From: a virus | Length of the DNA stretch: 64,000 bases | Virus record (IMG/VR): IMGVR_UViG_3300027635_000001 | Location: 1-64,000 of that record | Direction: 5' to 3' (one strand) | Shown: in pieces, positions 2,881 through 63,016 of the stretch | How positions within the stretch are numbered: the first letter of the stretch is position 1 | How the letters are laid out: each line of letters begins with the position of its first letter | The notes under the pieces: model-generated | What the model saw: the letters and a program-made list of their open reading frames with translations, nothing else | What the model was told of the DNA's origin: nothing | Databases searched by the model: none | Translations under genes and position numbers: made by a program

Positions 2881-3074
2881 GATACCGACCTCTGTTCCTG
2901 ATGGCAGACCACGAGATAATCCACGATAGCGTTAGCAGCCTTCGCCGCCTGCCTCGGGCTCGCATGAGCGGTTTTCATGATGATTCTAGCGATAACCGCC
3001 GCGTCTATTTCGATGATCTTTGGCGCAGATGGCGATGCGTTGATGGCGACTTCGATGTCTTCGGCCATGCTCAC
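2877..3074 (-). CDS. hypothetical protein (65 aa)
   Basis: ORF whose stop overlaps the Xis-like start. No family recognised. Confidence 0.45.
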   Translation of the reverse strand: MSMAEDIEVAINASPSAPKIIEIDAAVIARIIMKTAHASPRQAAKAANAIVDYLVVCHQEQRSVS

Positions 3075-23874: not shown

Positions 23875-25168
23875 GGCTGAGCGCCAGCGCGGCACAGAGG
23901 AGTGGCTCTGGTCATGGCGGCGCATCGGCCGGCCAGAGCAGCAGCCGCCGCCGGGCGATTGGCTCGTATGGCTGATCCTCGCCGGCCGTGGCTGGGGCAA
24001 GACTCGGACTGGCGTCGAGCATATCCGCGCCGAGGTCGAAGCCGGGCGCGCAAGCCGCATCGCCATCGTCGCCGAGACGGCGGCCGACGCGCGCGATGTC
24101 ATCGCCGAAGGTCCGTCCGGGTTTCTGTCAGTCGGGCCGCCGGAAAAACGGCCGCTCTACGAAAGTTCGAAACGCCGGCTGACTTGGCCGAACGGGGCAA
24201 CTGCGACGCTCTACAACGCGACCGAGCCGGACCAGCTTCGTGGACCTCAGTTCGATGCGGCCTGGTGTGACGAATTGGCGAAGTGGGGCTATTCCAAGCC
24301 CGGCAGTTCAGCCCGCTCGCTAGGCCAAGAGACATGGGACATGCTGCAGTTCGGCTTGCGGACCGGCTCGGCTCGATGCGTGGTGACGACGACGCCGCGG
24401 CCCGTGCCGCTGGTCAAGGCTCTGCTGGCGGCGCCGCGCACGCATGTCACGCGCGGTACGACGATGGACAACGCGGCGAATCTCTCGCCGGAGTTCATCA
24501 AGAAAATCCGCGATCGTTACGCGGGCACGCGGCTCGGCCGGCAGGAACTGAACGCCGAGGTTCTCGACGACGTTCCCGGCGCGCTGTGGACCGGCGCGAT
24601 GTTCGACGAGCGCGGCTTTCGCGTCGGCCCGGCTCCGGATATGGCGCGCGTCGTGGTCGCGATCGACCCGAGCGGCGCGCGCGGCGCGGATGACGATGGC
24701 GCGGACAGCATCGGGATTGTCGTGGCCGGCCGCGGCGTCGACGGCCGCGGCTACGTGCTCTCGGACCTGACTTGCCGCTTGTCGCCGATGGGATGGGGGC
24801 GGGTCGCGGTGCAAGCCTATCGCGACTTCGGGGCAGACCGGATCATCGCGGAGCGCAACTTCGGCGGCGCGATGGTCGAGCATGTCATCCGCTCGATCGA
24901 CAAGAACGTCAGCTATTCCGAGGTCACGGCCTCGCGCGGCAAGATCGTCCGCGCCGAACCGATCGCGGCGCTCTACGAGCAGAAGCGCGTTTCACATGTC
25001 GGCCCGTTCGATGGCTTTGAACTCCTCGAGGCGCAAATGTGCGCGATGACCTCGAACGGCTACATCGGCGAGGGCTCGCCGGACCGGGTTGACGCGCTGG
25101 TGTGGTGCCTGACTGAGTTGCTATCGACGGGATCGACGTATGACCACAGCCTCAGCTGGGTTGAATGA
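23789..25168 (+). CDS. terL: terminase large subunit
   Basis: Walker A LILAGRGWGKTRTG, ...RIAIVAETAADARDV..., PQFDAAWCDELAKW, and a C-terminal nuclease region VVAIDPSG...GIVVAG. The true start may lie downstream of 23789, which overlaps TerS by 86 nt. Confidence 0.9.
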   Translation: MTNSSVHTRFSAAPPPPLSDFLAEIARRKAERQRGTEEWLWSWRRIGRPEQQPPPGDWLVWLILAGRGWGKTRTGVEHIRAEVEAGRASRIAIVAETAADARDVIAEGPSGFLSVGPPEKRPLYESSKRRLTWPNGATATLYNATEPDQLRGPQFDAAWCDELAKWGYSKPGSSARSLGQETWDMLQFGLRTGSARCVVTTTPRPVPLVKALLAAPRTHVTRGTTMDNAANLSPEFIKKIRDRYAGTRLGRQELNAEVLDDVPGALWTGAMFDERGFRVGPAPDMARVVVAIDPSGARGADDDGADSIGIVVAGRGVDGRGYVLSDLTCRLSPMGWGRVAVQAYRDFGADRIIAERNFGGAMVEHVIRSIDKNVSYSEVTASRGKIVRAEPIAALYEQKRVSHVGPFDGFELLEAQMCAMTSNGYIGEGSPDRVDALVWCLTELLSTGSTYDHSLSWVE

Positions 25169-25305: not shown

Positions 25306-25535
25306 ACATCACAATCATTCCAGGCGAGGCCGAAGAGTACGCGCCCGCCAAGGACATCCGCACCGAGGCCGAAAGCGATGCTGATTATCGTAGGCGGCTG
25401 CTGCTCGATCCGGATGTTTTGCGGCACGACACGGACCAGGAAGCCTCCCTCAAGGCCATGCAGGGAGAGGTGCTGGACGCCCTCGGCGCGAGGCATCATC
25501 TGATCCGCATCCACACGTATATCTCGCCGCGATGA
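25302..25535 (+). CDS. hypothetical protein (77 aa)
   Basis: ORF coupled (ATGA) to both the upstream peptide and the portal. Confidence 0.45.
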   Translation: MNITIIPGEAEEYAPAKDIRTEAESDADYRRRLLLDPDVLRHDTDQEASLKAMQGEVLDALGARHHLIRIHTYISPR

Positions 25536-27085
25536 GCCTCGTCACCGGCGTAACCGACGCCTATCACCGCATCGGCGACACCCTCATCAATCTGATCACC
25601 GGGCTCGGGACGGCGAAGGACCCGCGCACGTCCTCGCATTTCGTATTCCGCGAGCTCGACCGCCATATCCTGGAGAAGATGTATCGCTCCGACTGGCTCG
25701 CGCGGCGCATCGTCGATCTTCCCGCACAGGACGCGACCCGCGAATGGCGGCAGTGGTCGGCGTCTCGCCCACAGCTGGAAAAGATCGACCTGCTCGAAAA
25801 GCACCTGCAGGTGCAGAACAAGATGCGGATGGGTCTGATCCGCGCGCGGCTCTACGGCGGCGGCGCGCTGGTGCTCGGCGTGGACCAGGGCCAGCCGGAA
25901 GAGGAACTCGACCTCGATGGCGTCGGGCTGAATGATTTGAAATTCGTGGTGGTGGTCAACAGGTACGAGCTCGCCGCCGGCCCGCGCATCTATAACGTCG
26001 ACTCGCCCTATTACACCCGGCCGGAATACTATACCGTCGCCACCCCCATGTTCGGTTTCTTCGGTGAAGGCGGGGGCGCCTTCCCTGCCACGCCCAGCCA
26101 GGGCGGCGCGCCCCCGATCCTCAGCGACCCCGGCAGGCAGGTGCAGCCTGGCTACGGCATGGTGCGCGTGCACCCGTCTCGGGTGATCGAGTTCAGCGGC
26201 AACGAGCTTCCCGACTGGCGTCTGGCCCCGCTCGGCGGCGGCTGGGGCGATAGCGTGCTGCAGACGGTCGACGACGCGCTGCGCGATTTCTCGATGATCA
26301 CGGCGGGCTTGGCCAGCATGGTCAACGACATGAAAATGGATGTCGTCAAAATCCCGGAATTGACGAGCAAGCTGTCGACCGCCGATCGCACCCAATTGCT
26401 GCTGAAGCGGTTCACTGCCGCGAACATGGCCAAGTCCTCGATCAACACCCTCCTGCTCGACACGGAAGAGGAGTGGAACCGCATAACGACCAGCTTTGGG
26501 AGCACTCCCGAGTTGATCAAGGTCGCGATGACTGTGGCCTGCGGCGCCGGCGGAATACCCGAATCCCGCGTCATGGGCTCCTCGCCGGGCAAGGGGCTAG
26601 CGGGAGCCGGCGGCAGCGGCGGCGAGGTCGATATTCTCAACTACAACAACGACATCGCCTCGAAGCAGAAGACCGAATACAAGCCTATCATGTACGCGCT
26701 GGATCGCTGCATCACGCAATCGGCGATCGGACGCTACGACCCGCACATCGATTACGAGTGGAACCCGCTTTCCCGGCCAACCGCGGCGGAATTGGCGGAT
26801 GTCGCGCTCAAGAAGGCGCAGGCGACACAGATTTACGTCGCCAGCGGGCTCTTCAATGAGGACATGCTGCGCGACTCCATCATATCGCAGCTGACCGAGG
26901 ACAACGTGTATCCCGGCATGGAGAACGCGCTTGACGAACATGGCGCTGAGCCCGAGGAGCCAGACGTGCCGCCGCAGGGGACTATGCCGCAGGGGCAACT
27001 CGGCTCCAACCCGTTCGAGGCGCTAAAGGGGCAGGCTGCGGCCAAGGCTGGCTTGCCCCCGCCGGGGGGCAAGCAGACGCCATGA
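25532..27085 (+). CDS. portal protein (DUF1073-type)
   Basis: 517 aa, directly after TerL. ...NLITGLGTAKDPRTS..., WLARRIVDLPAQDATREW, ...SINTLLLDTEEEW... resemble the DUF1073 portal family as I recall it. Confidence 0.8.
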   Translation: MSLVTGVTDAYHRIGDTLINLITGLGTAKDPRTSSHFVFRELDRHILEKMYRSDWLARRIVDLPAQDATREWRQWSASRPQLEKIDLLEKHLQVQNKMRMGLIRARLYGGGALVLGVDQGQPEEELDLDGVGLNDLKFVVVVNRYELAAGPRIYNVDSPYYTRPEYYTVATPMFGFFGEGGGAFPATPSQGGAPPILSDPGRQVQPGYGMVRVHPSRVIEFSGNELPDWRLAPLGGGWGDSVLQTVDDALRDFSMITAGLASMVNDMKMDVVKIPELTSKLSTADRTQLLLKRFTAANMAKSSINTLLLDTEEEWNRITTSFGSTPELIKVAMTVACGAGGIPESRVMGSSPGKGLAGAGGSGGEVDILNYNNDIASKQKTEYKPIMYALDRCITQSAIGRYDPHIDYEWNPLSRPTAAELADVALKKAQATQIYVASGLFNEDMLRDSIISQLTEDNVYPGMENALDEHGAEPEEPDVPPQGTMPQGQLGSNPFEALKGQAAAKAGLPPPGGKQTP

Positions 27086-27423
27086 GCGATTTTACGATCG
27101 GCCACGGAACCCCGGTGCAAAATCGGATTCCGCAGACGTTTATTCAGCAAGCTCACGAAGTCGCCAAGCGGGGACTCGCGATATCGTCGATGAATGGCTG
27201 GCGCTCTATTGAAACGGCACCGAAGGACGGAACGCGCATCCTCGGGTTTGGGCTATGGGCCGGGGAAATCAACGGCATCGAAACGGTCCCCGAGATGCTC
27301 GCCATCGAGTACGGCGCGGGCGGGGATTATCCGGGATTTGACTGGATCGTCTGCGGAACCGATGCGTATGCCGCATGGATGAAGCCGACGCTCTGGCATC
27401 CGTTGCCGAATCGCCCGGACTGA
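27082..27423 (+). CDS. DUF551-like protein
   Basis: NGWRSIETAPKDGTRILGFG... and the C-terminal KPTLWHPLPNRP match the DUF551 pattern (W.sIe.aPkDG..vL ... THWmPLP). Confidence 0.55.
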   Translation: MSDFTIGHGTPVQNRIPQTFIQQAHEVAKRGLAISSMNGWRSIETAPKDGTRILGFGLWAGEINGIETVPEMLAIEYGAGGDYPGFDWIVCGTDAYAAWMKPTLWHPLPNRPD

Positions 27424-28577
27424 TGGACACGTTCGACCCCGCCGGCCTCGGCGACATCCGCGCCCGCTTCGATCGCGAGACGACACGCCGCTGGACAAAG
27501 ACCGCGCGCGCCGTCAAGCGCGCCATCGTCGCGGACGACGCGCTCGGCATTGGCCCGAAGGCGCCGCGGATGGCGCAACCGGTCGCCGACAAGGCGTCGA
27601 TGTTCAAGCGCTGGCTCGACGAGCAGCTGATGATCGGCGTCGTCGGCCATGACGCCGGGTGGCTCGGGCCGCATGTGCAGGCGGCGGCGGCGCGGGCGTT
27701 GGCTCTGGCGATCAAGGATTACGACCCGGACGAGCCGCGCGACGAAAGCGGCAAGTGGAGCAGTGGTTCCGGAGGCCTGGTTTCTGGCGTCGAGCGCGCG
27801 GCCTTTCCGCCGCATATCCAAGCGCTGAAACTGCCGCCGGCCTGGACTGATGTCCGGATCAATCCGAACCCCGACGCCGATCTGCTGGCGATTGGCAAAG
27901 ACAAAAAGGGTCGCTCGCAATACGTATATTCGGCAAAGTTCCAAGGCGACCAGTCCGCGCAGAAGTTCAACCGGATCGCCGAACTCGAAAGCAGCGCGCC
28001 GGGGATCGCCGCCAAGAACGATGCTAACCGGGCATCGTCGGACCCAACTCTGGCCGAACATGCCGACGCGCTGCATCTCATCATGCAGACGGGCGTGCGA
28101 CCTGGCAGCGAGGACGACACTGGCGCCGACAAGAAAGCCTACGGCGCCACGACGTTGGAGGGTCGCCACGTAACCGGCTCTGGCGCTGATACGGCGCTGC
28201 AATTCGTCGGCAAGAAGGGCGTCTCGCTAAATCTGCCAATCACCAACGAGAGCGTGGCTTCGATGCTGGCATCCCGCGCCGCGAACGCAGGGCCGAACGG
28301 GCAACTGTTCCCGAACGTCAGCGACGCCAGCCTCCGCGATTATGTTCACGGCGTCGCCGGCGCTGGGGTCAAGGTCAAGGACTTCCGCACCCTGGTCGGC
28401 ACATCGACCGCTCGCGCGGAAGTCGCCAAGATAGCCGCGCCAAAAACGGCGGCGGATCGCAAAAAGGCTATAATGTCCGTCGCAAAAGTGGTATCCTCCA
28501 AGCTCGGCAACACGCCGACGATCGCATTGCAGAGCTACATTCATCCGAACGTGTTCGGAGGTTGGGGAAATGGCTGA
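27423..28577 (+). CDS. type IB DNA topoisomerase domain fused to a ~125-aa N-terminal domain of unknown function
   Basis: LPPAWTDVRINPNPDADLLAIGKDKKGRSQYVYS, TGVRPGSE, YGATTLEGRHV, LQFVGKKGVSLNLPI, KVKDFRTLVGTSTA, LGNTPTIALQSYIHPNVF. These supply the Arg/Lys/Arg/Asn/Tyr catalytic set of bacterial/poxvirus-type TopIB. Confidence 0.8.
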   Translation: MDTFDPAGLGDIRARFDRETTRRWTKTARAVKRAIVADDALGIGPKAPRMAQPVADKASMFKRWLDEQLMIGVVGHDAGWLGPHVQAAAARALALAIKDYDPDEPRDESGKWSSGSGGLVSGVERAAFPPHIQALKLPPAWTDVRINPNPDADLLAIGKDKKGRSQYVYSAKFQGDQSAQKFNRIAELESSAPGIAAKNDANRASSDPTLAEHADALHLIMQTGVRPGSEDDTGADKKAYGATTLEGRHVTGSGADTALQFVGKKGVSLNLPITNESVASMLASRAANAGPNGQLFPNVSDASLRDYVHGVAGAGVKVKDFRTLVGTSTARAEVAKIAAPKTAADRKKAIMSVAKVVSSKLGNTPTIALQSYIHPNVFGGWGNG

Positions 28578-29194: not shown

Positions 29195-29911
29195 ATGCAC
29201 TCGCGGGGTGCTTTTGAGATGTCCTCCAGCCAAGCCAATCCATCGGCTGCGGCATGTCACGCGGCGTCGGTTTCTCACCTCGCTGACATCTGCGATTACG
29301 TGAGCCAGCGCGCGCACGAGATTGTGTCTGCGGCCCTCCTTTCGCGGCAGCGTCCGGCACAGATCGGCCGCCTCCTCGACCGCGCCTTCGGGGAAGGGCT
29401 GCGGCGGTCGCGGATGCTCGCCGAGCACGCGGTCACCCAGGCTTACAGCCAAGCGGCGCTGGACGCGCTCGAAGCGCGCGGCGTGACCCATGTCGGGACG
29501 GTGAGCGAGCGCGCGGCGCGGAAAGCGACAACGATCGCCGATCTCGCCGACGAAATGCGCTTCACCCCGCAACCGCAGCATCCGCGCACCGGCCGCTTCG
29601 CCGAGGAGCACGTCGTTGCACGTGAAACGCGCCGCAGTCCGCGCACCGGCCGGTTCCGCCCGCAGGGCATCTCGCTGGCGCAGCGGCGCAAAGAGGAGCG
29701 GGCCGAAGCGGCGTTCGCGAAGGTCAAGGGGAAAGTGGATATTCTCACTGCGGAAGACGATAAGGTCTGCGCGCGTTGTGAAGAAGTGTCGGAAAACGGG
29801 CCGTATACGATAAATAAAGCTAGATCGCTGATTCCGTTGCATTTTCACTGCCGATGTCAATTTGTCGCTGCTGGGTCTATGGCGATGGATACTGTGGCCA
29901 CGGCAGGATGA
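29195..29911 (+). CDS. head morphogenesis protein (SPP1 gp7 / Mu F-like)
   Basis: The C-terminal DDKVCARCEEVSENGPYTINKARSLIPLHFHCRCQFV is the MuF signature. Two PRTGRF motifs are present. Alternative start at 29219. Confidence 0.7.
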   Translation: MHSRGAFEMSSSQANPSAAACHAASVSHLADICDYVSQRAHEIVSAALLSRQRPAQIGRLLDRAFGEGLRRSRMLAEHAVTQAYSQAALDALEARGVTHVGTVSERAARKATTIADLADEMRFTPQPQHPRTGRFAEEHVVARETRRSPRTGRFRPQGISLAQRRKEERAEAAFAKVKGKVDILTAEDDKVCARCEEVSENGPYTINKARSLIPLHFHCRCQFVAAGSMAMDTVATAG

Positions 29912-29946
29912 CCGACGCCCCCGACCTCCGCACCTGGGATGCCTGA

Positions 29947-30789
29947 ATGCCCACCCTCGAGATCACCACCAACATCGGCTGTCCGCTGATGTGCGCATAC
30001 TGCCCGCAAGCCAAGCTGAAGACCTCTTACGGCAAGAACATGAAGTGGTTGTCCTTCACGGACTTCGTGGCTATTCTGGCGAAGGTTCCGCGATACGTGC
30101 GCATCGACTTTTCCGGTATGTCGGAGCCTTGGATCAACAGCGAGTGCACGGCGATGCTGCGCCATGCGCTGCGCCGCGGATACAACGTCGCGCTTTACAC
30201 GACGCTGGTCGGATTGACCGACCCCGACGACGTGATCGGATTGCTGAGGGGGCACCGCGAGCAAGTCGAATGCGTCGTAATCCACTTGCCGGACGATCAA
30301 GGCAATATGCTCGGCTTCATCCCCACCGGGCAATATGACAGGGCTCTAAAGGCATTCATAGCCTTCGATGCAGAAGGCGGGACGAAGTGGTTCCGGTGGA
30401 TGGCGATGGGCGCCGCTGTTTCTCGCAATGATGTCGCTACCACCATGGAATGGATCGCCAACGATCGCGCTGGCTCGCTATCAGGCGAGCGCGTCGAGCC
30501 GGTGCAGCATGAGACGCCGGTGAGCTGTTCGTTCACGCCGTTCTACGATCAGAATGTGCTGCTGCCGAATGGCGATGTGGTGCTGTGCTGCATGGACTAT
30601 GAACTGAAGCACAAGATCGGGAACTTGCTGACGGACGACTATTTCGCGCTGTTCGCATCGCCCGAGATGGGACGGCTCCGCGCCGAGAACACCAAGTGCG
30701 GCGGCGACGGCTCGATCTGCAAGCGCTGCGTGCGGGCGACGCGGTACGAGGTTTCGCCCGGGTTCAAGCAGTTTTGGGCAGCGGCATAG
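29947..30789 (+). CDS. radical SAM enzyme with C-terminal SPASM/twitch-like Cys cluster
   Basis: CPLMCAYC (CxxxCxxC) at aa 12-19. C-terminal ...LPNGDVVLCCMDYELKHKIGNLL...NTKCGGDGSICKRCVRAT. Confidence 0.82.
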   Translation: MPTLEITTNIGCPLMCAYCPQAKLKTSYGKNMKWLSFTDFVAILAKVPRYVRIDFSGMSEPWINSECTAMLRHALRRGYNVALYTTLVGLTDPDDVIGLLRGHREQVECVVIHLPDDQGNMLGFIPTGQYDRALKAFIAFDAEGGTKWFRWMAMGAAVSRNDVATTMEWIANDRAGSLSGERVEPVQHETPVSCSFTPFYDQNVLLPNGDVVLCCMDYELKHKIGNLLTDDYFALFASPEMGRLRAENTKCGGDGSICKRCVRATRYEVSPGFKQFWAAA

Positions 30790-31018
30790 CCGCATCCTGC
30801 CAATCAGCAAGACGTTTGCCGACCCATTGGCTCGCCAACTGTTTGAACATTCGCTCAGCGTGTTCGCGCGACCCTTGGATGTCGACGACGGTAAGCAAGT
30901 CTATCAGACTGTCGGGCGTCGCACGCTCGAAAGGGTTCGGACCCGTGTAGACATGAGCCAGAACCTTGATCCTTGTGCCTGCGTCTTCGAATGAGTGGTC
31001 CGGTCCCCATTGTGACAT
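30764..31018 (-). CDS. hypothetical protein (84 aa)
   Basis: ORF downstream of the ParB-like gene on the minus strand. It converges on the radical SAM 3' end and overlaps it by 26 nt. Confidence 0.5.
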   Translation of the reverse strand: MSQWGPDHSFEDAGTRIKVLAHVYTGPNPFERATPDSLIDLLTVVDIQGSREHAERMFKQLASQWVGKRLADWQDAAMPLPKTA

Positions 31019-31073
31019 TTGCGCGTCCTTTCATCGTTTTGGTCGCCGGGTTCAAGCAGTTCTGGCAGGCGGC

Positions 31074-31955
31074 TTAGAATGTCAAATCTATGGGAAGCTT
31101 GTTCCCCTCTCGCAGGCCCTTGTTGATCGCATTCACGAACCCGCTAGCATACACCTTTGCGCCTCCCCTTGCGAACACGGCGGCTACTTTGCTTGCTTCG
31201 CGCAAAAGCATATCCACCCCCACGGCAAAAATCCTGGCTGCCCATCGCTGATCTGACAGCGACGAGCCTTCCGGCATTTTCGATTCAAGATAAAGAAGAC
31301 CGTGGATGATCCGCTCATGCATAGGCTCGCCATCACATAGTTTTACGATGACCGGCCATATGCGAACTAGATCGGCCCTTCGCTCGGTCGCCGCAGCCAT
31401 TAAACTGCCCACACACGCGACGGTTGTCGAAGATTGTTGTTTCTTAGGTTCCCGACCAGCTTGAGCTATAAGACTATTTACGAACATCGCCGTTTCGTCA
31501 TGTGAGCACAACAAAGCGCGAAATGACTGAACCGAAGTAAGAGGCTTTCGGTTTGCGTTGACCCGATAGAAACCACGAGCTTCAGCTTCCTGGTCTTTAA
31601 CTTTAAAAACCATTGATGGAATCGTGACAATATCGGGGCGTATCTTAGCCGCCTCGACTCGATGCATACCGTCGACTACGTAGTAATCACCGTTACGGTC
31701 GGCAACGACTATGCTACCGCATGCTACCCAAGACCAAGTCTTCGCCATGAGAATGATCTTGCGCTTGCTATCCTGGTCTCGCTGATAGGCCGGATCGCCA
31801 CGCAATTCGAACTTGTCGATTTCCTCGAACACACCCCGTTGATCGGGCGTGATGTCCAGTACGAGTTGCCCCACACGTAGTTGTTTCTCGCTACCGTTGT
31901 TTCGAGAGTCAACGGACGTCAAGATGTTGTGTTCAAGAGAGAGTGAAGCGGCCAT
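31074..31955 (-). CDS. ParB/Srx-fold N-terminal domain protein (ParB-like nuclease/NTPase domain)
   Basis: ...IVVADRNGDYYVVDGMHRVEAAKIRPD... is the DGxHR ParB-N motif. GGAGGAG lies 9 nt upstream of ATG 31955. Visibly lower GC than its flanks. Confidence 0.62.
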   Translation of the reverse strand: MAASLSLEHNILTSVDSRNNGSEKQLRVGQLVLDITPDQRGVFEEIDKFELRGDPAYQRDQDSKRKIILMAKTWSWVACGSIVVADRNGDYYVVDGMHRVEAAKIRPDIVTIPSMVFKVKDQEAEARGFYRVNANRKPLTSVQSFRALLCSHDETAMFVNSLIAQAGREPKKQQSSTTVACVGSLMAAATERRADLVRIWPVIVKLCDGEPMHERIIHGLLYLESKMPEGSSLSDQRWAARIFAVGVDMLLREASKVAAVFARGGAKVYASGFVNAINKGLREGNKLPIDLTF

Positions 31956-32128
31956 TTGTAAGTCTCCTCCGCGGTCCGGCCCGATCAAGCCTGGAGCGCG
32001 AGCACAAGGGTCACATAAAAGCGACGACCGGCCGCAGAGAAGTTCGGAAATGGCGCCGCACTGCAAATCGCGTTGATCGCCGCGAAGCCCGAATGTGAAC
32101 ACGTCAATCAATAGGATGTCAACCACAA

Positions 32129-32371
32129 ATGTTCGCTTATGAAGAGCCAAGCGCCTCCCCTCCTTCCGACATGCTCGCCGCACTGCAGAAGGGCGTGAGG
32201 CAACCGGCAGACATGACGGCGATTGACAATTCCGGGTTCACCTTCCTGTGCCGAGTGCTCTGGTTCATCGACTTAAGCCTTTATCCCCAAGAGGCCGAAC
32301 GAATCGCCACGCGCTGCAAAACCGACGCTCGCTTACGCGCCGTCATAGACGCCCATAGACGACGGGGCTAA
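32129..32371 (+). CDS. hypothetical protein (80 aa)
   Basis: ORF divergent from the ParB-like gene. Confidence 0.4.
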   Translation: MFAYEEPSASPPSDMLAALQKGVRQPADMTAIDNSGFTFLCRVLWFIDLSLYPQEAERIATRCKTDARLRAVIDAHRRRG

Positions 32372-32374
32372 CCC

Positions 32375-32602
32375 ATGCGCAAACCGCTCGCCGTGACCGA
32401 CGCCGACGCGATTGAGGTTAGCGAATTCAGCCCAGAATCCGCTGGATGGATTCGCGTCCCTGGAAGGCCTCGTACATGGGAGAAGCCAGACGGCACTCTG
32501 TATGAATTTTCCCCTCGAGCACGCGAAGTCCTCGTGGCCCCAAAAGAAAACCTGCCCGCGATGACGCGCAGGATCGCCAAAGAGAGGGGGCTGAGCGAAT
32601 GA
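32375..32602 (+). CDS. hypothetical protein (75 aa)
   Basis: ORF whose stop overlaps the next start. Confidence 0.45.
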   Translation: MRKPLAVTDADAIEVSEFSPESAGWIRVPGRPRTWEKPDGTLYEFSPRAREVLVAPKENLPAMTRRIAKERGLSE

Positions 32603-34350
32603 GGCGCGCATCACCTATCGCGGTCACAGATGCCGACGGCCGCTCATGGACCCGCGCGCTCGCTCTGTCTGACCGCGAGACCATACTCGACGGCGTCACC
32701 CGTCATCGCGACGGCTATCTGATCGCCGACGCCCGCGTGGCCCGCGTGGGCACGCAGACCTACAAGGGCTTCGAGGTAGGGCTTCCCGATCGCGAGCGCG
32801 TGACGCTCTACCGGCCGCCGGAGGAGGTCTTCGCCACCGACTCGATGCGCAGCCACGCCAACAAGCCTGTCACGCTGACGCACCCGAAGCGGATGGTCGA
32901 CTCGACGACGTGGGGCAAGGTCGCCAAGGGATTCAGCGGCTCCGACGTCGTCAGGGACGGCGATTATGTCCGCGTGCCGCTGATGCTGACCGACGCGGCG
33001 GCGATCGATGCTTATGAGACTGGGAAGGCCCGCGAACTCTCCGTTGGCTATACGACCGACATCGACTGGACTGCAGGCGCGACGCCGGACGGGAAGGCCT
33101 ATGACGGCGTCCAGCGCGATATCCGCGTCAACCATCATGCGTTCGTTCCGGTCGCGCGCGGCGGCGAGAACCTGCGCTTCGGAGACGCCATGAGCACCAC
33201 GAAGTTCTGCAAGGACTGCGGCGGCGCGATGGCGATGAAAGACGGGCAGTACAGCTGCAAGGGTTGCGGCGGCGGCCAGATGCGCGATGGCCTGAATTTC
33301 TGTTCGAACTGTGGCAGCGGCTTGACTGGCGATGACCAGATGGCCTGCCCGACCTGCGGCTTCGATCTCAAGCCCACGCCGCGCAGCAACGACGACGATC
33401 CGATGGAAGACGACGACGACATGATGGACCGGTTCACCGTGGATCGCGACGGCCGTCTGATCGCCGATACCTCGTTCACCGCCGAGGAGCGGCGCGATCT
33501 CGCCAAGCGCGGGCTAGCGAAGCCGGACGGGAGCTACCCGATCAGGAACAAGGAAGACCTGAAACACGCCAAGGAAGCCTACGCGCGGGGCGGCGCGACC
33601 GCATCCGACAAAGCGTGGATCAACAAGCGGGCCAAGGCGCTTGGAGAACCCCTACTTGGCGAAACTGACGCCGCAGACAACGGCATTTCAAGGAGCAGTG
33701 TCATGCCTATCACCAAGACGTTCGACGGCGTCCCGATCCAGTTCGTCGACGAGATTTCCGCGGCCGCGATGACCCGCGAGGTCGCGCGCTTGCAGGGGGT
33801 CATCGACGCTGCGGCAAAGGCGAAGAAGAAGGACGATGACGACGACGCCGACGAGGAGATGGAGCGCGAGAAGAAGGAGCGCGGCTATCAGGACGCGATC
33901 AAGGCCAAGGACGGCGAAATCGCGGTGCTGAAGAAGCAGGTCGCCGATGCGACGCTGACCGACGCCCAGATCGACGCACGTATCGAAGAGCGCGTGCGCG
34001 TGTTCGACGCCGCCAAGCCGCATCTTGCGAAAGATTTCAATCCGGCCGGCAAGAGTTTGTCCGACATCCGCCGCGCGACGGTGGCCGTCTCGCTCGGCGA
34101 CGCCGCGATCAAGGACTGGGACGACGCGCAGGTCTCCGGCGCGTTCGCCGCCGTGACCGCGGCTGGCGTCAAGAAGGGCGGCGCGACCCTGCTGGCGGAC
34201 GGTATGTCTGATGCCATGCGCATGAATGCCGGCCGCATTGGCGGGGCTTCCTTGGCCGACGCCGAGGCCGACGCAGCCAAGGCGCACGCCGAATACGTCA
34301 AGCGGCTGCAGGACGGCTACAAGACGCCGATCGGCTCGGCGAGGAATTGA
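32599..34350 (+). CDS. DUF2213-type prohead protease/scaffold protein with Zn-ribbon insert and coiled-coil C-terminus
   Basis: The N-terminus GYLIADARVARVGTQTYKGFEVG...VTLYRPPEEVF...ANKPVTLTHP...ELSVGYT resembles DUF2213. Three CxxC pairs lie in the middle. The C-terminal half is charged and helical. Confidence 0.68.
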   Translation: MRRASPIAVTDADGRSWTRALALSDRETILDGVTRHRDGYLIADARVARVGTQTYKGFEVGLPDRERVTLYRPPEEVFATDSMRSHANKPVTLTHPKRMVDSTTWGKVAKGFSGSDVVRDGDYVRVPLMLTDAAAIDAYETGKARELSVGYTTDIDWTAGATPDGKAYDGVQRDIRVNHHAFVPVARGGENLRFGDAMSTTKFCKDCGGAMAMKDGQYSCKGCGGGQMRDGLNFCSNCGSGLTGDDQMACPTCGFDLKPTPRSNDDDPMEDDDDMMDRFTVDRDGRLIADTSFTAEERRDLAKRGLAKPDGSYPIRNKEDLKHAKEAYARGGATASDKAWINKRAKALGEPLLGETDAADNGISRSSVMPITKTFDGVPIQFVDEISAAAMTREVARLQGVIDAAAKAKKKDDDDDADEEMEREKKERGYQDAIKAKDGEIAVLKKQVADATLTDAQIDARIEERVRVFDAAKPHLAKDFNPAGKSLSDIRRATVAVSLGDAAIKDWDDAQVSGAFAAVTAAGVKKGGATLLADGMSDAMRMNAGRIGGASLADAEADAAKAHAEYVKRLQDGYKTPIGSARN

Positions 34351-34944: not shown

Positions 34945-34970
34945 GTCGCCGTGTGAGGCGCGACGGCGAC
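34945..34970 (+). promoter_or_regulatory. 8-bp perfect hairpin immediately 5' of the capsid gene ribosome-binding site
   Basis: GTCGCCGT-(10 nt)-ACGGCGAC, followed directly by AGGAGA (34971-76) and ATG 34983. Confidence 0.35.
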
Positions 34971-34982
34971 AGGAGAACCTTC

Positions 34983-35927
34983 ATGCGGCATTCACTCTAC
35001 GACAACCAGCAGCAGCTCGGCTTCCTGCTGGCTCAGACGACCTATATCGAGTCCCAAGTCTATCGGATTCAGTACCCGGAGATCATGTATCCAAAGCTGA
35101 TGCCGATCGACACATCGGCATCGGAATGGGCCAAGTCGATCACCTATTACTCGATCGACCGCGTCGGCAATGCCGATTGGTACGACGGCCAGGCGACCAA
35201 TATCCCGATGGCCGACATCAACCGCGACAAGCGCGAGCAGGGCGTAGAGATGGCCGCGATCGGCTATCGCTACAACCTCGAAGAGATCGGCGTCGCGATG
35301 ATGATCCCGGGCATGAACCTGAGTTCGGAGCGGGCCGAGGCTGCGCGGCGGGCCTACGAGGAATTTATCGACCGCCTCGTGCGCGTCGGCGATACTCGCA
35401 AGAAGATCACGGGCCTGTTCAACAATCCATTTGTGACTCGGACCACGGCGATTGCCGACGGCTCGGGCTCCTCATCCTTGTGGATCAACAAGACTGGCGA
35501 CCAGATGATCGCCGACGTCACCGGCGCGCTGACAGCAGTCTATCAGGGATCGAACACGGTCGAGATGGCCGACACGGTCCTCTTGCCGATCGCCAATCTG
35601 CAACTCCTGGCCAACACGCGCATCGCCAACACCTACGGCAACGTGCTCGACTATCTGATGAAATACAACCTCTGGAAGCAAACCACCGGGCAAGACCTGA
35701 CGATCCTCGGCGTGCTCAGTCTCGACACGGCCGGGATCAATGGGAGCGCGCGGATGGTGGCTTATAGGCGCGATCCGCAGGTAATTAAGTTGCATTTGCC
35801 GATGCCTCATCGTTTTCTGCCCGTGTTTCAGACAGGGCCGATGACTTATGACATTCCTGGCATCTTCCGCGTCGGCTCGGTCGAGGTCAGGCGACCCGGC
35901 GCGGTACAGTATGTTGATGGGATTTAG
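34983..35927 (+). CDS. major capsid protein (DUF2184 / encapsulin-like type)
   Basis: 314 aa. YIESQVYRIQYPEIMYPKLMPIDTSASEWAKSITYYSIDRVGNADWY... matches my memory of the DUF2184 N-terminus. Strong SD. Position fits, after scaffold and decoration genes. Confidence 0.78.
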   Translation: MRHSLYDNQQQLGFLLAQTTYIESQVYRIQYPEIMYPKLMPIDTSASEWAKSITYYSIDRVGNADWYDGQATNIPMADINRDKREQGVEMAAIGYRYNLEEIGVAMMIPGMNLSSERAEAARRAYEEFIDRLVRVGDTRKKITGLFNNPFVTRTTAIADGSGSSSLWINKTGDQMIADVTGALTAVYQGSNTVEMADTVLLPIANLQLLANTRIANTYGNVLDYLMKYNLWKQTTGQDLTILGVLSLDTAGINGSARMVAYRRDPQVIKLHLPMPHRFLPVFQTGPMTYDIPGIFRVGSVEVRRPGAVQYVDGI

Positions 35928-36092: not shown

Positions 36093-36422
36093 ATGCCGAC
36101 CCCAAACGACGAAGCCCCGGCCCGCGTCGGCCGCGCCATATTCCCCGAGCCCGAGGGATTCCTATGCCGCATCGCCAATCCGAGCCAGCGCGCGCGCGTG
36201 ATCTACGACGGGATCAAGAACGCGAAGCCGATCCACATTCCGCCTGGCAACACCATCGAGCCCATAGTCCTATCGAGGGCGCGCATCGAGCAGCTTCGCG
36301 CCGAGGAGTTCGCAAATCCTGAAGACCCAGACCTGAAGGTGGTCGAACTCGGGCCCGCACGCGAGGACGCTGATCATCGCGCCCAGGCCGCGCCAGGCAA
36401 AGCTCCCACCACTCGCCCATGA
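36093..36422 (+). CDS. hypothetical protein sharing an ARVIYDG...PI.I.PG.T segment with the N-terminus of the 59720 giant protein
   Basis: RARVIYDGIKNAKPIHIPPGNTIEPIVLSRARIEQLRAE here, compared with GARVIYDGLANLRPIPIAPGATLRGVDLSDSAANRIRRE there. Confidence 0.5.
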   Translation: MPTPNDEAPARVGRAIFPEPEGFLCRIANPSQRARVIYDGIKNAKPIHIPPGNTIEPIVLSRARIEQLRAEEFANPEDPDLKVVELGPAREDADHRAQAAPGKAPTTRP

Positions 36423-36631: not shown

Positions 36632-36736
36632 ATGACTGTGGTTGGCATCGCAATCATCATAGGGCGAGGCATTCAGCTAGCCTGTTTGGTCGTGATAGCC
36701 GTCGCGATCGTAATGCGCATTGTCACAGCACCGTAA
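36632..36736 (+). CDS. 34-aa hydrophobic peptide (below ORF-track cutoff)
   Basis: GAGGAGG lies 7 nt upstream of the ATG. MTVVGIAIIIGRGIQLACLVVIAVAIVMRIVTAP. TAATG overlap with the next gene. Confidence 0.45.
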   Translation: MTVVGIAIIIGRGIQLACLVVIAVAIVMRIVTAP

Positions 36737-37065
36737 TGTTTTCGAAGCGAGAGCGCGAGGGCTACGTGCTGATCGACCACCGCGAGAGCCCTGGATTTAC
36801 CTGCGACGAGGCGCCGGCGGCGTATCGCGCTGGCATCCCGGTCGGGCCCGGCGCGTTCTTCGAGGGCGCGACCAATACCTGTTCGCATTGCAATCGAGTG
36901 GTCGTCATGAACCCTGACCGCACTCGCCAGCGCGCATGGTGTGGGGCCTGCGATCACTACATCTGTGACGTGTGCGGCGCGAGGATGAAACTTACGGGCG
37001 TCTGCGATTCGTTCACCAGGCGCGCTGAGGCGGAAATTGAACGAGCAATCAAAGCAGGAGCATGA
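36736..37065 (+). CDS. small Cys-rich protein (109 aa)
   Basis: ...NTCSHCNRVVVMNPDRTRQRAWCGACDHYICDVCGARMKLTGVCD suggests Zn binding. Confidence 0.55.
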   Translation: MFSKREREGYVLIDHRESPGFTCDEAPAAYRAGIPVGPGAFFEGATNTCSHCNRVVVMNPDRTRQRAWCGACDHYICDVCGARMKLTGVCDSFTRRAEAEIERAIKAGA

Positions 37066-59494: not shown

Positions 59495-59775
59495 CCGTCA
59501 AGGAACCCATCTTGCACTTGGCCAAGCGTGGCGTGAAGCAGCCGGAATCGCTGAAAGCAGGCGAGATCAAGCGGCTATCCGAATGGGTTGTGTTGGCCTT
59601 TCGCCAGCATCAGCGGGAGGCGGCCCGACTAGTTGGCGAGGACTTTGTCAGAGCGAATCGCGTAGTCGAGAACACCGATAGCGTCTTCGAAGAGCCATTC
59701 CCGTTCCACCGAAAGAGCGATGCTGAAATCTCGGAGAATGTACGAGACGGTATCGCGCGCCGCAGTGAGATATGA
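59491..59775 (+). CDS. hypothetical protein (94 aa)
   Basis: Internal start MTVKEPILHLAKRGVKQPE... with an ATGA overlap. Confidence 0.45.
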   Translation: MTVKEPILHLAKRGVKQPESLKAGEIKRLSEWVVLAFRQHQREAARLVGEDFVRANRVVENTDSVFEEPFPFHRKSDAEISENVRDGIARRSEI

Positions 59776-62700
59776 CCTGACCAACCGGATGCGCGGCGCC
59801 CGCGTGATCTACGACGGGCTGGCGAACTTACGTCCGATCCCGATTGCTCCCGGCGCCACATTGCGCGGCGTCGACCTCAGCGACAGCGCGGCCAACCGCA
59901 TCCGTCGGGAGGGCGAGCTGCAGATCAGCGAGGTCGATCCGCCCGTCTCGGTTGCGGCGGTCGATGGGCAGAAGCCTCCCTTGGTCGTGGTCGGCATGTG
60001 GGGCATCGGCGATAACCTGCACCAGCGCGCCGTCGTCCGGGAGCTGATGAAAACCCGCGATGTATGGTTGGAAACATGCCACTATCTGCTCTACCATGAT
60101 CTCGTCAAACAGGGCCTGAAGCTGCTCTTCCGGCCGACGAGCCTCCGAGCGCAGGCCAAGACGATAGCGCGCGAGCGCGGCATGTTTCCGCGTTCCCCAG
60201 AGCCGCCCCGTAGCGCCCGGCGCATCAAGCTTTGGTATCACCGAAAGGAAATCGAACGAGACGGAAGTATCGTCGAGACCATGATGGCCGAGGGCGGCGT
60301 TGGCGGCGTCAAGCCCGATTTCAGCCTTCCCATTCCTCCCGAGTGGCGCACTGCGGCGCTGCAACTCATCAGCCGATGGGAGATGAAGGGGAAGCCCTTG
60401 ATGGTCTATCGGCCGATCGTCTTGCGCAATGAGTGGAACGGCGCGATGCGCAATCCGGATGAGAGCGCCTACGCCGCTTTGTTCCAACGCATCCGGGATC
60501 TGTTCTTTGTGGTCAGCATCGCCGATCTGGAACCCGGGAAGGAATCCATCGTCGGGCCGGAGCAGGACGCCGACGTCAAGTTGCACCGCGGCGAACTGGA
60601 TTTCCAGACCATGGCTGCGCTCTTCGCCGAATCTGCTCTTTTCTTCGGCAATGCCGGATTTGGCCCCGTGCTCGCCCAGGCCGTCGGAACGCCGCTCGTC
60701 GTCGTCTATGGCGGCCGGGAGAGCTATCTCACCACCGAGCGAGGCGGCGCGCATCTCGCTCCGACGCTCGGAATTAACCCGGACAGGCCCTGCGACCAGC
60801 ACAACGATTGCAAGCGCGACGTGACAGTGAAAACGCCAAACGCCGGGATATGCCCCTGCGACAAGACCATCACGCTAGAGCCGGCATTTGCGCGCTTGGA
60901 CGATTTCCTCGCCAAGCACATTCGAGGCAAGGCCAACACTTTGATCTTCGGCACCGCTTACGTCGATTCGGACCATCGCGTTGCTTTGATGGGCTACTGG
61001 ATCACGCTCACGGAAGCGCTCAATCCGGATTGCGACCTGCTGATCGTCGACAGCGCCTCTCCGCGAATGAAGGAGGTTGCTGGCATCTCCAGTTTTTTGC
61101 CCTACGTCGGCACTGCCAGGGCAAAGCGTCGCATCTTCGACTTTGGCGACAACGTCGGGCATCTGTCGCGTCGGGGGCGGGATGGCTGGGGCCGCGCTTT
61201 CTGCTATGGCCTGCAGGCGGCGATCGACGGCGGGTACGAATATGTCGCCCACATAGAGGGTGATAGCCTGTTCCGGCTGCCAGTGCGCGACGTCATAATA
61301 GAGATGGCGCGCGACAAAACCAAGGTCGTGTCTACGCCCGTCATCGGCACGGATCGCAGTTGGCCCGCATGGCTGGAAACTGGGCTGATGTTCTTCAGCG
61401 TCGATTATCTTCGCACTTGCAATTTCGCGCAAAAATATGATTGGCCAAGCCGCCCCGTTGCGCCGACGCCGGAGGTCGTCGTGCGGCAGATCGTGAGCGC
61501 CAATCTGAAAATGATGGGCTGGCGCGCATGGCGCGGCGACAAGAACCAGATCAGCCGCGATAATGTCGAGGCGCTGGACCTGGATTGGGTGACGCACTGC
61601 CACAGCGATATAGAGGTCTATTCCAGGTTTCTACGCAAGGCCCTCAGTGGAAGGGAGGTAATGCGAAATGACGTGGGACCCGACCAAGCCGTTGATAGGA
61701 CCCGATCCGACCTTGTAGCGTCGCCAGCCGTCAAGCTGAACTTCGGTTGTGGGAGCAACAAGCTCGACGGCTGGCGCAACATGGACGCTGAGATCGACAT
61801 CGAGAAGCCGCTGCCGTTCGAGAGCAACTCGGCGGATGCGATCTTCTCCGAGCACTGCATCGAGCACGTCGACTATTATGCCGCGATCCGTTTTTTCGAG
61901 GAGGCCTTCCGGGTGCTGAAGTCGGGCGGCCTGATCCGGATCACAGTGCCGTCGCTCGAACAGATAATGGACAATGGCGACGAGGAGTATTGGAGGTTTA
62001 CGACCAAGTGGCAGACGATCGGCGCGACCCGGCGCGGGGCGATGCACGCGATCCTCTACGCCCACGGTCATAAGACCGCATGGACGGCCTCGCTGCTGTG
62101 CGCAACGCTGTGCTACGCTGGCTTTGAGAAGCTGGCGAGGCAAGCGCCGGGGCAATCCGACTTTGCCGTCCTGCGCGGCCTGGAGGGCCACGGCAAGGTC
62201 ATCGGCGAGAAGTTCAATGCGATCGAGTCGCTGTGTTTCGAAGGGATCAAGCCGGATGGGATACGACATGAAAATCTCGGAGGAGAAGTTTCCAAGGCGA
62301 TTCTTCCCGCCCAGGCCGCCGCTGTTATCGAACCAATATCCGAACGGGCCGGGGGGATTCGATCCGTACAGACTTTGGGCGAGCAACGAGCGGCACCCCT
62401 CATCTTCGCCACCACCTACGTCGACAGCGACGCCAGCCAAGCCGCGATAGATCAGCCGCTAGTTTTCGTGGACTCGGCGAAGGTCGCGGTCGTTATCGGC
62501 GGCGCGGCTTCGGTCATCGAAGAGATGGCGGCCACTGACGCGCTGCTCGCAGGAACCGGCGTCACGCCGACCTATTTCGTCATCAACGACATGATCCCGC
62601 GCTTCGAGCGGCCATGCCTCGCCATCAGCCTGCATCCGCAAAAGTTGGCGGTATGGCTAGAAGAGCGCAAAGCGGCCGGCTTCCCCGATCCGGGGCAGGT

Positions 62701-63016
62701 CTGGGCGCACGTCAAGCACAAGTCTTACCCCGCCGTGACGCATTCGACCGAGGACTGGCGCGGCTCCTCCGGCCTGTTCGCCATCGCCGTCGCCCGACAA
62801 CTCGGTTTTGAGCGCATAATTTTGTGCGGCGTGCCGATGACGGCACTGGCCGGGCATGTCGTGCGCGGCCCGGCTTTGTGGCGCCCGGCTGAGCAATTCC
62901 TCGGGGGATGGCGCATCCGCAAGGTTTCCATCGCCCCGTATGTGCGGTCGTGGTCGGGCTGGACCGAACAGGCATTCGGACGGCCGGCGCTGGATTTCCT
63001 AGAGGTTGGCGCATGA
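59720..63016 (+). CDS. 1098-aa multidomain protein: RVIYDG-like N-domain + GT-B/GT9 (heptosyltransferase)-like + possible GT-A-like + class I SAM methyltransferase + MptE/DUF115 (Maf)-like domain
   Basis: aa 86-345: VVVGMWGIGDNLHQRAVVREL ... FFGNAGFGPVLAQAVGTPLVVVYGG (GT9-like). aa 668-750: VKLNFGCGSNKLDGWRNMD...FSEHCIEHV...RVLKSGGLIRITVP (MTase). aa 893-1045: ...VVIGGAASV...GSSGLFAIAVARQLGFERIILCGVPM (DUF115-like). Start uncertain (59720, 59738 or 59789). Confidence 0.68.
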   Translation: MLKSRRMYETVSRAAVRYDLTNRMRGARVIYDGLANLRPIPIAPGATLRGVDLSDSAANRIRREGELQISEVDPPVSVAAVDGQKPPLVVVGMWGIGDNLHQRAVVRELMKTRDVWLETCHYLLYHDLVKQGLKLLFRPTSLRAQAKTIARERGMFPRSPEPPRSARRIKLWYHRKEIERDGSIVETMMAEGGVGGVKPDFSLPIPPEWRTAALQLISRWEMKGKPLMVYRPIVLRNEWNGAMRNPDESAYAALFQRIRDLFFVVSIADLEPGKESIVGPEQDADVKLHRGELDFQTMAALFAESALFFGNAGFGPVLAQAVGTPLVVVYGGRESYLTTERGGAHLAPTLGINPDRPCDQHNDCKRDVTVKTPNAGICPCDKTITLEPAFARLDDFLAKHIRGKANTLIFGTAYVDSDHRVALMGYWITLTEALNPDCDLLIVDSASPRMKEVAGISSFLPYVGTARAKRRIFDFGDNVGHLSRRGRDGWGRAFCYGLQAAIDGGYEYVAHIEGDSLFRLPVRDVIIEMARDKTKVVSTPVIGTDRSWPAWLETGLMFFSVDYLRTCNFAQKYDWPSRPVAPTPEVVVRQIVSANLKMMGWRAWRGDKNQISRDNVEALDLDWVTHCHSDIEVYSRFLRKALSGREVMRNDVGPDQAVDRTRSDLVASPAVKLNFGCGSNKLDGWRNMDAEIDIEKPLPFESNSADAIFSEHCIEHVDYYAAIRFFEEAFRVLKSGGLIRITVPSLEQIMDNGDEEYWRFTTKWQTIGATRRGAMHAILYAHGHKTAWTASLLCATLCYAGFEKLARQAPGQSDFAVLRGLEGHGKVIGEKFNAIESLCFEGIKPDGIRHENLGGEVSKAILPAQAAAVIEPISERAGGIRSVQTLGEQRAAPLIFATTYVDSDASQAAIDQPLVFVDSAKVAVVIGGAASVIEEMAATDALLAGTGVTPTYFVINDMIPRFERPCLAISLHPQKLAVWLEERKAAGFPDPGQVWAHVKHKSYPAVTHSTEDWRGSSGLFAIAVARQLGFERIILCGVPMTALAGHVVRGPALWRPAEQFLGGWRIRKVSIAPYVRSWSGWTEQAFGRPALDFLEVGA

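Follow-up and report, generated by a model that had tools for sequence, protein, structure and literature searches.

A twitch-type radical SAM enzyme among the late genes of a temperate phage, with a possible role in sugar tailoring

The subject of this study is a gene for a radical S-adenosylmethionine (SAM) enzyme, located in a 64,000-nt stretch of viral DNA (IMG/VR record IMGVR_UViG_3300027635_000001, positions 1 to 64,000, hereafter the window). A first model-made reading of the letters and open reading frames (ORFs), the sequence-only reading, had placed a SPASM-type enzyme among capsid-assembly genes and emphasised the maturation of peptides or proteins. The analysis presented here finds a real, intact enzyme whose predicted subclass is twitch (BtrN-like), and whose family is large, uncharacterised and distributed over viruses, bacteria and archaea. 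The reading we favour, with about even confidence, is that of an accessory, late-expressed sugar-tailoring enzyme belonging to a phage glycosylation module; the enzyme is probably not a peptide maturase. The features of the gene are as follows.

29947..30789, plus strand: radical SAM enzyme gene with a twitch-type auxiliary-cluster domain (ORF, Pfam, homologues, AlphaFold2 model, PDB fold match)
29980..30003, plus strand: Cx3Cx2C motif (C12, C16, C19), predicted to hold the SAM-cleaving [4Fe-4S] cluster (sequence, invariance in alignment)
30526..30729, plus strand: twitch domain, C194-x14-G209-x4-C214(C215) ... C258-x2-C261, predicted to hold one auxiliary [4Fe-4S] site (cysteine conservation, BtrN alignment, Pfam SPASM)

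Motifs, fold and closest characterised enzymes

The ORF starts with ATG, encodes 280 aa and is preceded, about 9 nt upstream, by a weak GGGA Shine-Dalgarno-like element, while a scan for promoters and terminators around the gene gave nothing beyond shuffled expectation. The identical 280-aa protein has been called on 8 public metagenomic contigs, the longest of which is 73 kb. The protein is a member of the radical SAM superfamily, as it carries both the Cx3Cx2C motif (CPLMCAYC, residues 12–19) and a partial TIM-barrel core with a GGE-type SAM motif (D54 F55 S56 G57 .. E60 P61, in FSGMSEP at residues 55–61), which is conserved in the alignment. Conservation was assessed in a close alignment of 27 homologues and a distant one of 21 viral, bacterial and archaeal sequences (30–49% identity). 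Every sequence of the distant alignment has C12, C16, C19, C194 and C214; in the close one C16 and C19 are invariant, and C215, C258 and C261 are present in at least 90% of the distant sequences. The reading of the gene as a pseudogene or inactive remnant was therefore dropped, since all catalytic and cluster residues are conserved. The C-terminal cysteine cluster pointed out in the sequence-only reading stands in part: C194, C214(/C215), C258 and C261 are conserved, whereas C251 (within KCGGDGSIC) shows no conservation in either the close (n = 27) or the distant (n = 21) alignment.

The Pfam SPASM model (PF13186) matches residues 201–261 with an E-value of 8.4e-8 (32.8 bits against a cutoff of 21.5), and the Radical_SAM model (PF04055) matches residues 10–146 with an E-value of 2.7e-5 (24.9 bits, slightly short of the 29.5 cutoff); both families are recorded in many homologues. 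The assignment to radical SAM enzymes with an auxiliary Fe-S domain made in the sequence-only reading is thereby confirmed, its cysteine motifs being conserved in homologues down to about 30% identity. NCBIfam gave only partial, far sub-threshold matches and no subfamily assignment: TIGR03942 matches the C-terminal region at only E 0.04, and the N-terminal matches to QueE (2.2e-4) and NrdG are weak and cover the generic radical SAM core only. TIGR04085, which had been suggested as a check, is not among the NCBIfam matches at E ≤ 1. Searches of PHROGs and PADLOC gave no meaningful match for the enzyme.

The protein was also compared with the seven-cysteine SPASM motif (CX9-15GX4C – gap – CX2CX5CX3C – gap – C). 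The CX5CX3C block and the trailing cysteine are missing in the aligned homologues, so that the first half of the motif and a CxxC pair remain. These four conserved auxiliary cysteines correspond to one cluster, which indicates a twitch domain rather than a full SPASM domain and predicts a single Cys4 auxiliary cluster. The term twitch domain denotes a shortened SPASM domain holding a single auxiliary [4Fe-4S] site, which has four cysteine ligands in the BtrN type (PMC9012708).

This assignment agrees with the closest solved relative as judged from the sequence profile and the modelled fold, which is the sugar dehydrogenase BtrN. When the family profile was compared with all PDB sequences, BtrN was the sole match below E 1e-3, via the twitch domain, with C215, C258 and C261 paired with BtrN C187, C232 and C235; DesII was the next, weak match. 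The AlphaFold2 model has a mean predicted local distance difference test (pLDDT) score of 81.5 and a predicted template modelling (pTM) score of 0.82, and only residues 161–183 are poorly defined. In a Foldseek search of the PDB, BtrN (4m7t) came first (E 1.2e-9, template modelling (TM) score of 0.66 normalised to BtrN), followed by the anaerobic sulfatase-maturing enzyme (anSME, 2.5e-6), DesII, BlsE, SuiB (3e-5), MoaA, AbmM and viperins; EpeE matched at 3e-3, MoaA and viperin at 1e-4 to 1e-3, and the top 40 matches are all radical SAM enzymes.

BtrN, the 2-deoxy-scyllo-inosamine (DOIA) dehydrogenase of the butirosin pathway (PDB 4M7T), resembles the window enzyme in its small size (250 versus 280 aa), in the Cx3Cx2C motif at the extreme N-terminus and in the single Cys4 auxiliary cluster, predicted for the window enzyme, that sits in a shortened SPASM (twitch) domain. 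It carries out a two-electron oxidation of a sugar-like carbocycle, and its auxiliary cluster is a proposed electron sink (PMC9012708). The two proteins differ in that they share only 12–14% identity (TM 0.59–0.66), that residues 161–183 of the window enzyme form an insertion modelled with low confidence, and that its context is viral. No aminoglycoside cluster was seen in the neighbourhoods studied, the neighbours being phage structural or glycan genes; a BtrN orthologue acting as DOIA dehydrogenase was rejected on the basis of the low identity and of the missing 2-deoxystreptamine/butirosin context. DesII and BlsE are the next-best fold matches among small-molecule enzymes. They are larger (about 330–480 aa) and share 10–12% identity with the window enzyme, but their substrates are TDP- or CMP-linked sugars, which fits the nucleoside-diphosphate (NDP)-sugar epimerase/dehydratase and DegT genes that neighbour the homologues.

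Neighbourhoods of the relatives and a likely partner

A protein database search (E ≤ 1e-3) gave 1013 homologous clusters, nearly all of 270–330 aa and unnamed, and the best cluster besides the identical one has 57% identity. Relatives were found on 177 IMG/VR contigs, 80 of which are covered by the viral neighbourhood counts given below, and in the genomes of 88 species; a tblastn search against isolated phages gave 4 distant matches (about 32% identity). A glycosyltransferase, sugar-nucleotide enzyme or methyltransferase lies within three genes of the relative in 74 of the 80 viral loci, and a glycan gene or methyltransferase does so in at least 35 of 72 genome loci. For annotation, representatives of clustered neighbours were checked against Pfam, unclustered neighbours being left out; the verified families are glycosyltransferase (GT) families GT2, GT10 and GT1, NDP-sugar epimerase/dehydratase, DegT, LicD, MptE-like, FkbM and Methyltransf_11/12. 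The association occurs in independent contexts, namely T4-like marine phages, a second marine group, temperate phages of HK97, lambda and DUF2184 types, Desulfobacterota, Lachnospiraceae and archaea.

Clustering of the neighbour genes separates the viral contexts into three groups. Group A, the closest to the window protein (49–56% identity), consists of temperate-type phages with large Methyltransf_11-containing proteins and FkbM methyltransferases. Group B consists of T4-like marine phages with RecA/UvsX-like and Methyltransf_12 genes, a cytidylyltransferase together with a mannose-6-P-isomerase cupin, and NDP-sugar dehydratases; genes for a 2[4Fe-4S] ferredoxin and a MazG-like protein are also present, as is a second radical SAM gene. 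Group C is characterised by GT10 fucosyltransferase-like, FkbM-like, GT2 and Anp1-like glycosyltransferase genes. In Desulfobacterota, Lachnospiraceae, Anaerolineae and archaea the relatives, which are more distant, lie in clusters with GT2, GT10, GT1, DegT, LicD, MptE-like, FkbM and NDP-sugar epimerase genes. Individual loci combine the radical SAM gene with glycosyltransferases, FkbM, GT2 and an SDR gene (P0087), with a TibC-like GT9 and a TPR protein (P0024), or with a methyltransferase, an RmlD-like epimerase and the polyprotein described below (P0004). In the T4-like marine loci L019–L062, the second radical SAM protein has an N-terminal SPASM/twitch-like segment, and the ferredoxin (a possible reductant), the MazG-like gene and two NDP-sugar dehydratase/epimerase genes lie near the homologue.

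The likeness to BtrN and other sugar enzymes, together with the usual glycosyltransferase and methyltransferase neighbours, makes sugar tailoring more likely than the crosslinking of capsid proteins or peptides. The latter would be the task of a SPASM-type maturase acting on a polypeptide (either a protein of the virion or a small peptide encoded nearby) by thioether or C-C crosslinking, epimerisation or formylglycine formation, and we consider it distinctly unlikely. SPASM maturases such as anSME, SuiB, PqqE and AlbA do share with the window enzyme the ancestry of the C-terminal Fe-S domain and the PF13186 match, which is above cutoff, and anSME, SuiB and EpeE are fold matches; the late-operon position, the protein-directed folds of the partner domains described below (TibC, UGGT, glycogenin) and a TPR protein adjoining the Roseiarcus homologue point in the same direction. 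However, these maturases have the seven-cysteine motif and two auxiliary clusters, while the window enzyme has a single auxiliary motif and lacks the CX2CX5CX3C block, and TIGR04085 and all models of maturases of ribosomally made peptides that are modified after translation (RiPPs) are absent or negligible among its NCBIfam matches. Radical SAM maturases of RiPPs usually carry an N-terminal RiPP recognition element (RRE) and adjoin a precursor gene. The window enzyme has neither: Pfam and NCBIfam scans found no PqqD-like or RRE domain, for which the few residues ahead of the radical SAM motif (residue 12 onwards) leave no space, and no conserved precursor gene lies adjacent. A search of all loci with the small window ORFs at 32129, 32375, 36093 and 36736 placed none of them beside a homologue; the ORFs at 32129, 32375 and 36736, three of the small or Cys-rich substrates put forward in the sequence-only reading, have no homologue in more than 160 loci carrying a relative. 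Nor is any small-ORF cluster common to the three viral context groups or to the genome loci. An anSME-like role was rejected on account of the single auxiliary motif and the weak TIGR03942 match, and because the annotated neighbours include no sulfatase. The single motif, the missing RRE and the best match to a sugar dehydrogenase thus turn the interpretation away from peptide or protein maturation.

Searching the window with the neighbour-gene clusters (phmmer with cluster representatives) located a likely partner of the enzyme, a polyprotein of 1098 aa.

59720..63016, plus strand: 1098-aa polyprotein, likely partner (Pfam, AlphaFold2 model, Foldseek, neighbour clusters of relatives)
59972-60919, plus strand: GT9 heptosyltransferase-like domain A, residues 85–400 (Foldseek)
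60935-61639, plus strand: GT-A/GT8-like domain B, residues 406–640 (Foldseek)
61730-62251, plus strand: class I SAM methyltransferase, residues 671–844 (Pfam Methyltransf_11, 6.3e-9)
62480-63001, plus strand: conserved C-terminal domain, residues 921–1094 (polyprotein homologues)

The polyprotein gene directly follows tail-fibre genes, one of which contains CBM_5_12, and its product shows strong similarity to the large methyltransferase proteins encoded next to the radical SAM gene in group A; in some phages its domains are encoded as separate genes. An exact-sequence look-up of the 1098-aa protein gave no record, and Pfam and PDB sequence searches with domains A and B gave no match, while an hhalign comparison with a TibC-like GT9 (56% probability) is no more than suggestive. 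The AlphaFold2 model of residues 85–640 (29 homologues) has a pLDDT of 91 and supports GT9-like and GT8-like folds: domain A matches WaaF (1psw, 7e-10), TibC (4e-8) and WaaC, and domain B matches the UGGT catalytic domain, glycogenin, WrtF and alpha-1,3-galactosyltransferase (about 1e-5). Several homologues carry the JGI name ‘ADP-heptose:LPS heptosyltransferase/SAM-dependent methyltransferase’. A module of about 45 aa is common to the polyprotein N-terminus (59720-59920, plus strand) and a 109-aa ORF (36093-36422, plus strand) just after the major capsid protein (MCP) gene (42% identity, pairwise E 2e-9); it is also found at the N-terminus of the polyprotein homologues in L001 and L002 and might be a common docking segment.

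Polyprotein homologues adjoin the radical SAM gene in L001, L002, L006–L009, L011, L012, L083 and L167, and at least 10 of the 15 closest viral loci bearing the radical SAM gene have the polyprotein on the same contig. Among 52 viral polyprotein loci, the gene lies right after tail-fibre genes or right after an MCP gene (of the lambda gpE, HK97 or capsid_4 type), and an FkbM methyltransferase gene often comes next. An HK97-type phage (P0011) has the order MCP, three small genes, polyprotein, 123-aa gene, radical SAM gene, 58-aa gene and head closure, and in a prophage of Mesorhizobium opportunistum (WSM2075) gpE is immediately followed by the polyprotein, with no radical SAM gene. With its modelled domains, the polyprotein represents a structural-operon glycosylation cassette, that is, phage glycosyltransferase and methyltransferase genes in a late operon. 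Since most polyprotein phages have no radical SAM gene nearby, the enzyme is not needed by this mobile glycosylation/methylation module of late operons and is an optional addition to it; in the window the pair is separated.

Position among the head genes

The head-gene block of the window begins with TerL (23789-25168), the portal gene (25532-27085), a 113-aa ORF, a Topo IB-like gene (27375-28577) and a MuF-like gene (29195-29911). The radical SAM gene follows, then a minus-strand 84-aa ORF (30764-31018) and a minus-strand ParB-like/DUF6551 gene (31074-32183), two small plus-strand ORFs, the DUF2213 protease/scaffold gene (32599-34350), a cement protein gene and the DUF2184 MCP gene (34953-35927). 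The late-operon location given in the sequence-only reading is correct in that the gene lies among late/virion genes and follows the MuF-like gene on the plus strand. The operon is however not continuous up to the scaffold and capsid genes: two minus-strand genes come before these, and the radical SAM gene therefore ends a plus-strand unit. The segment in between is best described as one feature.

29912..32598, no strand assigned: variable cargo slot between the MuF-like gene and the DUF2213 gene (dip in guanine-cytosine (GC) content, differing contents in relatives)

In the window the slot holds the radical SAM gene, the minus-strand 84-aa ORF, the ParB-like/DUF6551 gene and the two small plus-strand ORFs. 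Its GC content is 58–59% over the radical SAM gene and 51–54% over the ParB-like gene, compared with 62–67% in the flanks. The nearest isolates by capsid protein, the Rhizobium RHEph phages (43–44% identity), have the same head module and no radical SAM gene; in RHEph04 the slot between the MuF and DUF2213 genes holds an SGNH esterase and hypothetical genes. The metagenomic phage P0018 (54% identity) is the sole other phage found with a radical SAM gene in the same place, directly upstream of the DUF2213, cement protein and MCP genes and together with five other small genes in the slot. These differing contents are the reason for considering the slot variable and the radical SAM gene an accessory passenger. 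Homologues of the window TerL, portal, DUF2213 and MCP occur within 8 kb of a relative in none of the 80 viral loci, and linkage to the DUF2213/DUF2184 head module, whose co-occurrence the sequence-only reading had proposed to analyse, was accordingly rejected as a general rule; the gene behaves largely as the sporadic insert that the same reading had named as speaking against its proposal. The position within the head module is thus incidental and the enzyme an optional accessory rather than a head-assembly factor, and the earlier statement that no role in head assembly is described for such an enzyme holds.

The genes around the slot also bear on the possibility that the enzyme modifies nucleotides or DNA (QueE-like, viperin-like or MoaA-like, or by DNA hypermodification) for the protection of packaged DNA or for anti-defence, which we regard as very improbable. 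The weak QueE and NrdG matches, the MoaA and viperin fold matches and the nearby ParB-like/DUF6551 and Topo IB-like genes could be taken in its favour, and DNA hypermodification by phage glycosyltransferases exists, according to a preprint (bioRxiv 10.1101/2023.12.21.572611). The matches are however confined to the generic radical SAM core, and the ParB-like and Topo IB-like genes recur at no other locus with a relative, for which reason linkage of the enzyme to either was rejected. Moreover, the phage has ordinary Dam and C5 methylases, no deazaguanine genes are present among the window ORFs scanned, and PADLOC gave no match. To our knowledge, QueE and viperin do not have a Cys4 twitch cluster, which also counts against such a function.

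Several of the surrounding genes have features of their own. The Topo IB-like gene (plus strand; PF01028 5.5e-20; bacterial Top1B N-domain 8e-9) is in an unusual place between the portal and MuF-like genes, and its product could be packaged or ejected. The minus-strand cassette (30764-32183) that interrupts the plus-strand late operon has low GC; the 3' end of the 84-aa ORF overlaps the radical SAM stop, and the ParB-like/DUF6551 gene has a weak GmrSD_N match. The 238-aa MuF-like protein (plus strand) matches part of a 1693-aa NUDIX/DUF7178 protein (L084 488-5569, 3e-66), which suggests that the relative has a MuF-fused cargo domain that the window phage lacks or has split off. The DUF2213 protease/scaffold (plus strand) has 583 aa compared with 455 aa in the P0018 phage, with an inserted double zinc-ribbon-like Cys segment at residues ~220–260, and the Cys-rich 109-aa ORF at 36736-37065 (plus strand) has only weak zinc-finger-like Pfam matches.

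The window further encodes an integrase, RecT, DnaB, NusG-like, Dam and C5-methylase proteins, and the presence of integrase and RecT indicates a temperate phage. The integrase/RecT/Dam/C5-methylase-like/DUF5131/NusG-like set lies at 1667-2965 (minus), 3657-4895 (minus), 14871-15887, 16516-17388, 17664-18752 and 21829-22518 (plus), and the DUF5131 (Gp37/Gp68) protein is a strong match (7e-85). The closest cellular relatives of the enzyme are from acidophilic Alphaproteobacteria (Xanthobacteraceae, Roseiarcus, Rhodopila, Rhodoblastus), which hints at the host.

Proposed sugar tailoring and its possible acceptor

In the favoured mechanism, the 5'-deoxyadenosyl radical would take hydrogen from a sugar carbon of either a nucleotide-activated sugar or a glycan residue already transferred. 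The simplest fate of the substrate radical would be a two-electron oxidation of the BtrN type, in which the auxiliary cluster serves as electron acceptor, while a DesII- or BlsE-type dehydration or deamination, or an epimerisation, are other possible chemistries. The tailored sugar might then be used or further decorated by the GT9-like/GT8-like/methyltransferase polyprotein, the favoured final acceptor being virion proteins (capsid or tail fibres) and the alternative the host envelope. Virion proteins are favoured because both genes lie in late (structural) transcription units, because the fold relatives TibC, UGGT and glycogenin are protein-directed, and because there is a precedent in mycobacteriophages. 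Since in the closest clade the gene recurs in structural operons beside the glycosyltransferase/methyltransferase protein, a virion role via glycans is possible.

Several observations weigh against this mechanism. The whole family is biochemically uncharacterised, the identity to BtrN is as low as stated above, and the protein-acting anSME and SuiB are likewise good fold matches. There is also room for a protein-proximal substrate, since the enzymes that share the partner's folds (TibC, UGGT and glycogenin) have proteins as their targets. About 65 of the 80 viral loci belong to two marine lineages and are thus not independent samples, and the radical SAM gene lies within 10 kb in only 9 of the 52 polyprotein loci, the distance between the two genes in the window being 29 kb. 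Finally, the Acetobacteraceae/Rhodopila homologues are found among housekeeping genes with no glycosyltransferase nearby, so that the glycan association is not universal. In those loci (L105–L119) the homologue (40–42% identity) has a conserved chromosomal neighbourhood of, as identified by eye, trpC-like, folK-like, NYN-domain and molybdopterin-oxidoreductase-like genes.

The same sugar chemistry could instead serve a glycan on the host envelope (lipopolysaccharide (LPS) core, O-antigen or capsule), leading to lysogenic conversion or superinfection exclusion, a reading we consider rather unlikely. It would suit a temperate phage, the LPS heptosyltransferases WaaC and WaaF have the GT9 fold, and cellular homologues are found in clusters of the O-antigen/capsule type that also contain an ABC exporter, DegT, LicD and an O-antigen-ligase-like gene; modification of the host O-chain has in addition been proposed for pelagimyophage clusters with glycosyltransferases and radical SAM cassettes (PMC7029224). 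The genes are however within late structural operons, directly after MCP or tail-fibre genes, and not close to the integrase/immunity region where conversion genes are usually located, and no flippase or GtrA/GtrB-type genes were found in the window by phmmer with cluster representatives only.

For virion proteins as acceptor, the closest precedent is provided by mycobacteriophages: PMC11600133, citing Freeman 2023, describes glycosyltransferase and O-methyltransferase genes of structural operons that modify capsid and tail-tube proteins. In the Che8/Corndog type of cassette, glycosyltransferase and methyltransferase genes are embedded in a structural operon, as is the case here, and in relatives of the window phage the polyprotein also comes directly after the MCP gene. 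The window phage differs in that its glycosyltransferases are of other families and fused in one polyprotein, in that the hosts are proteobacterial, and in that glycosylation of the virion occurs in mycobacteriophages while it is here a prediction from the genes. We know of no radical SAM component described in the mycobacteriophage cassettes.

Radical SAM genes are known in phages, mostly unexplained, and the literature consulted places them beside glycosyltransferases only in passing: pelagimyophages and cyanomyophages have both glycosyltransferases and radical SAM cassettes in their host-recognition clusters, and no function is assigned to the latter (PMC7029224), and one phage radical SAM gene has been listed as an ‘antibiotic synthesis’ gene (PMC12801897). 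A family member accompanied by a methyltransferase, an RfaE-like/cupin gene, an NDP-sugar dehydratase, the ferredoxin and the second radical SAM gene is present in the T4-like marine L019 and its relatives, whose homologues have about 45% identity to the window protein; these are lytic marine myoviruses, unlike the temperate window phage. A broader and more speculative proposal, which we find doubtful at present, is that the enzyme and the polyprotein constitute an undescribed, horizontally mobile virion-glycan pathway, in which a sugar, perhaps derived from heptose, would first be oxidised, deoxygenated or epimerised by the radical SAM enzyme, then methylated, and late in infection linked to proteins of the capsid or tail fibres. 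Temperate alphaproteobacterial phages that are unrelated to each other would have this pathway in common, and relatives of the enzyme would occur in the host-recognition clusters of marine myophages.

Virion glycosylation has so far been documented mainly in mycobacteriophages, where it changes antibody recognition, and is not known to involve radical SAM chemistry. The participation of such chemistry in phage-encoded glycan decoration is a testable possibility, and even if the family does something else, a likely mis-annotation as SPASM peptide maturase is corrected. If the sugar-tailoring role is true, it would give a function to an extensive radical SAM family without annotation, which spans viruses, bacteria and archaea and counts more than 1000 clusters, add new sugar chemistry to the remodelling of phage or host surfaces, and account for the many ‘radical SAM’ genes that lists of auxiliary genes from marine and soil phages now leave unexplained.

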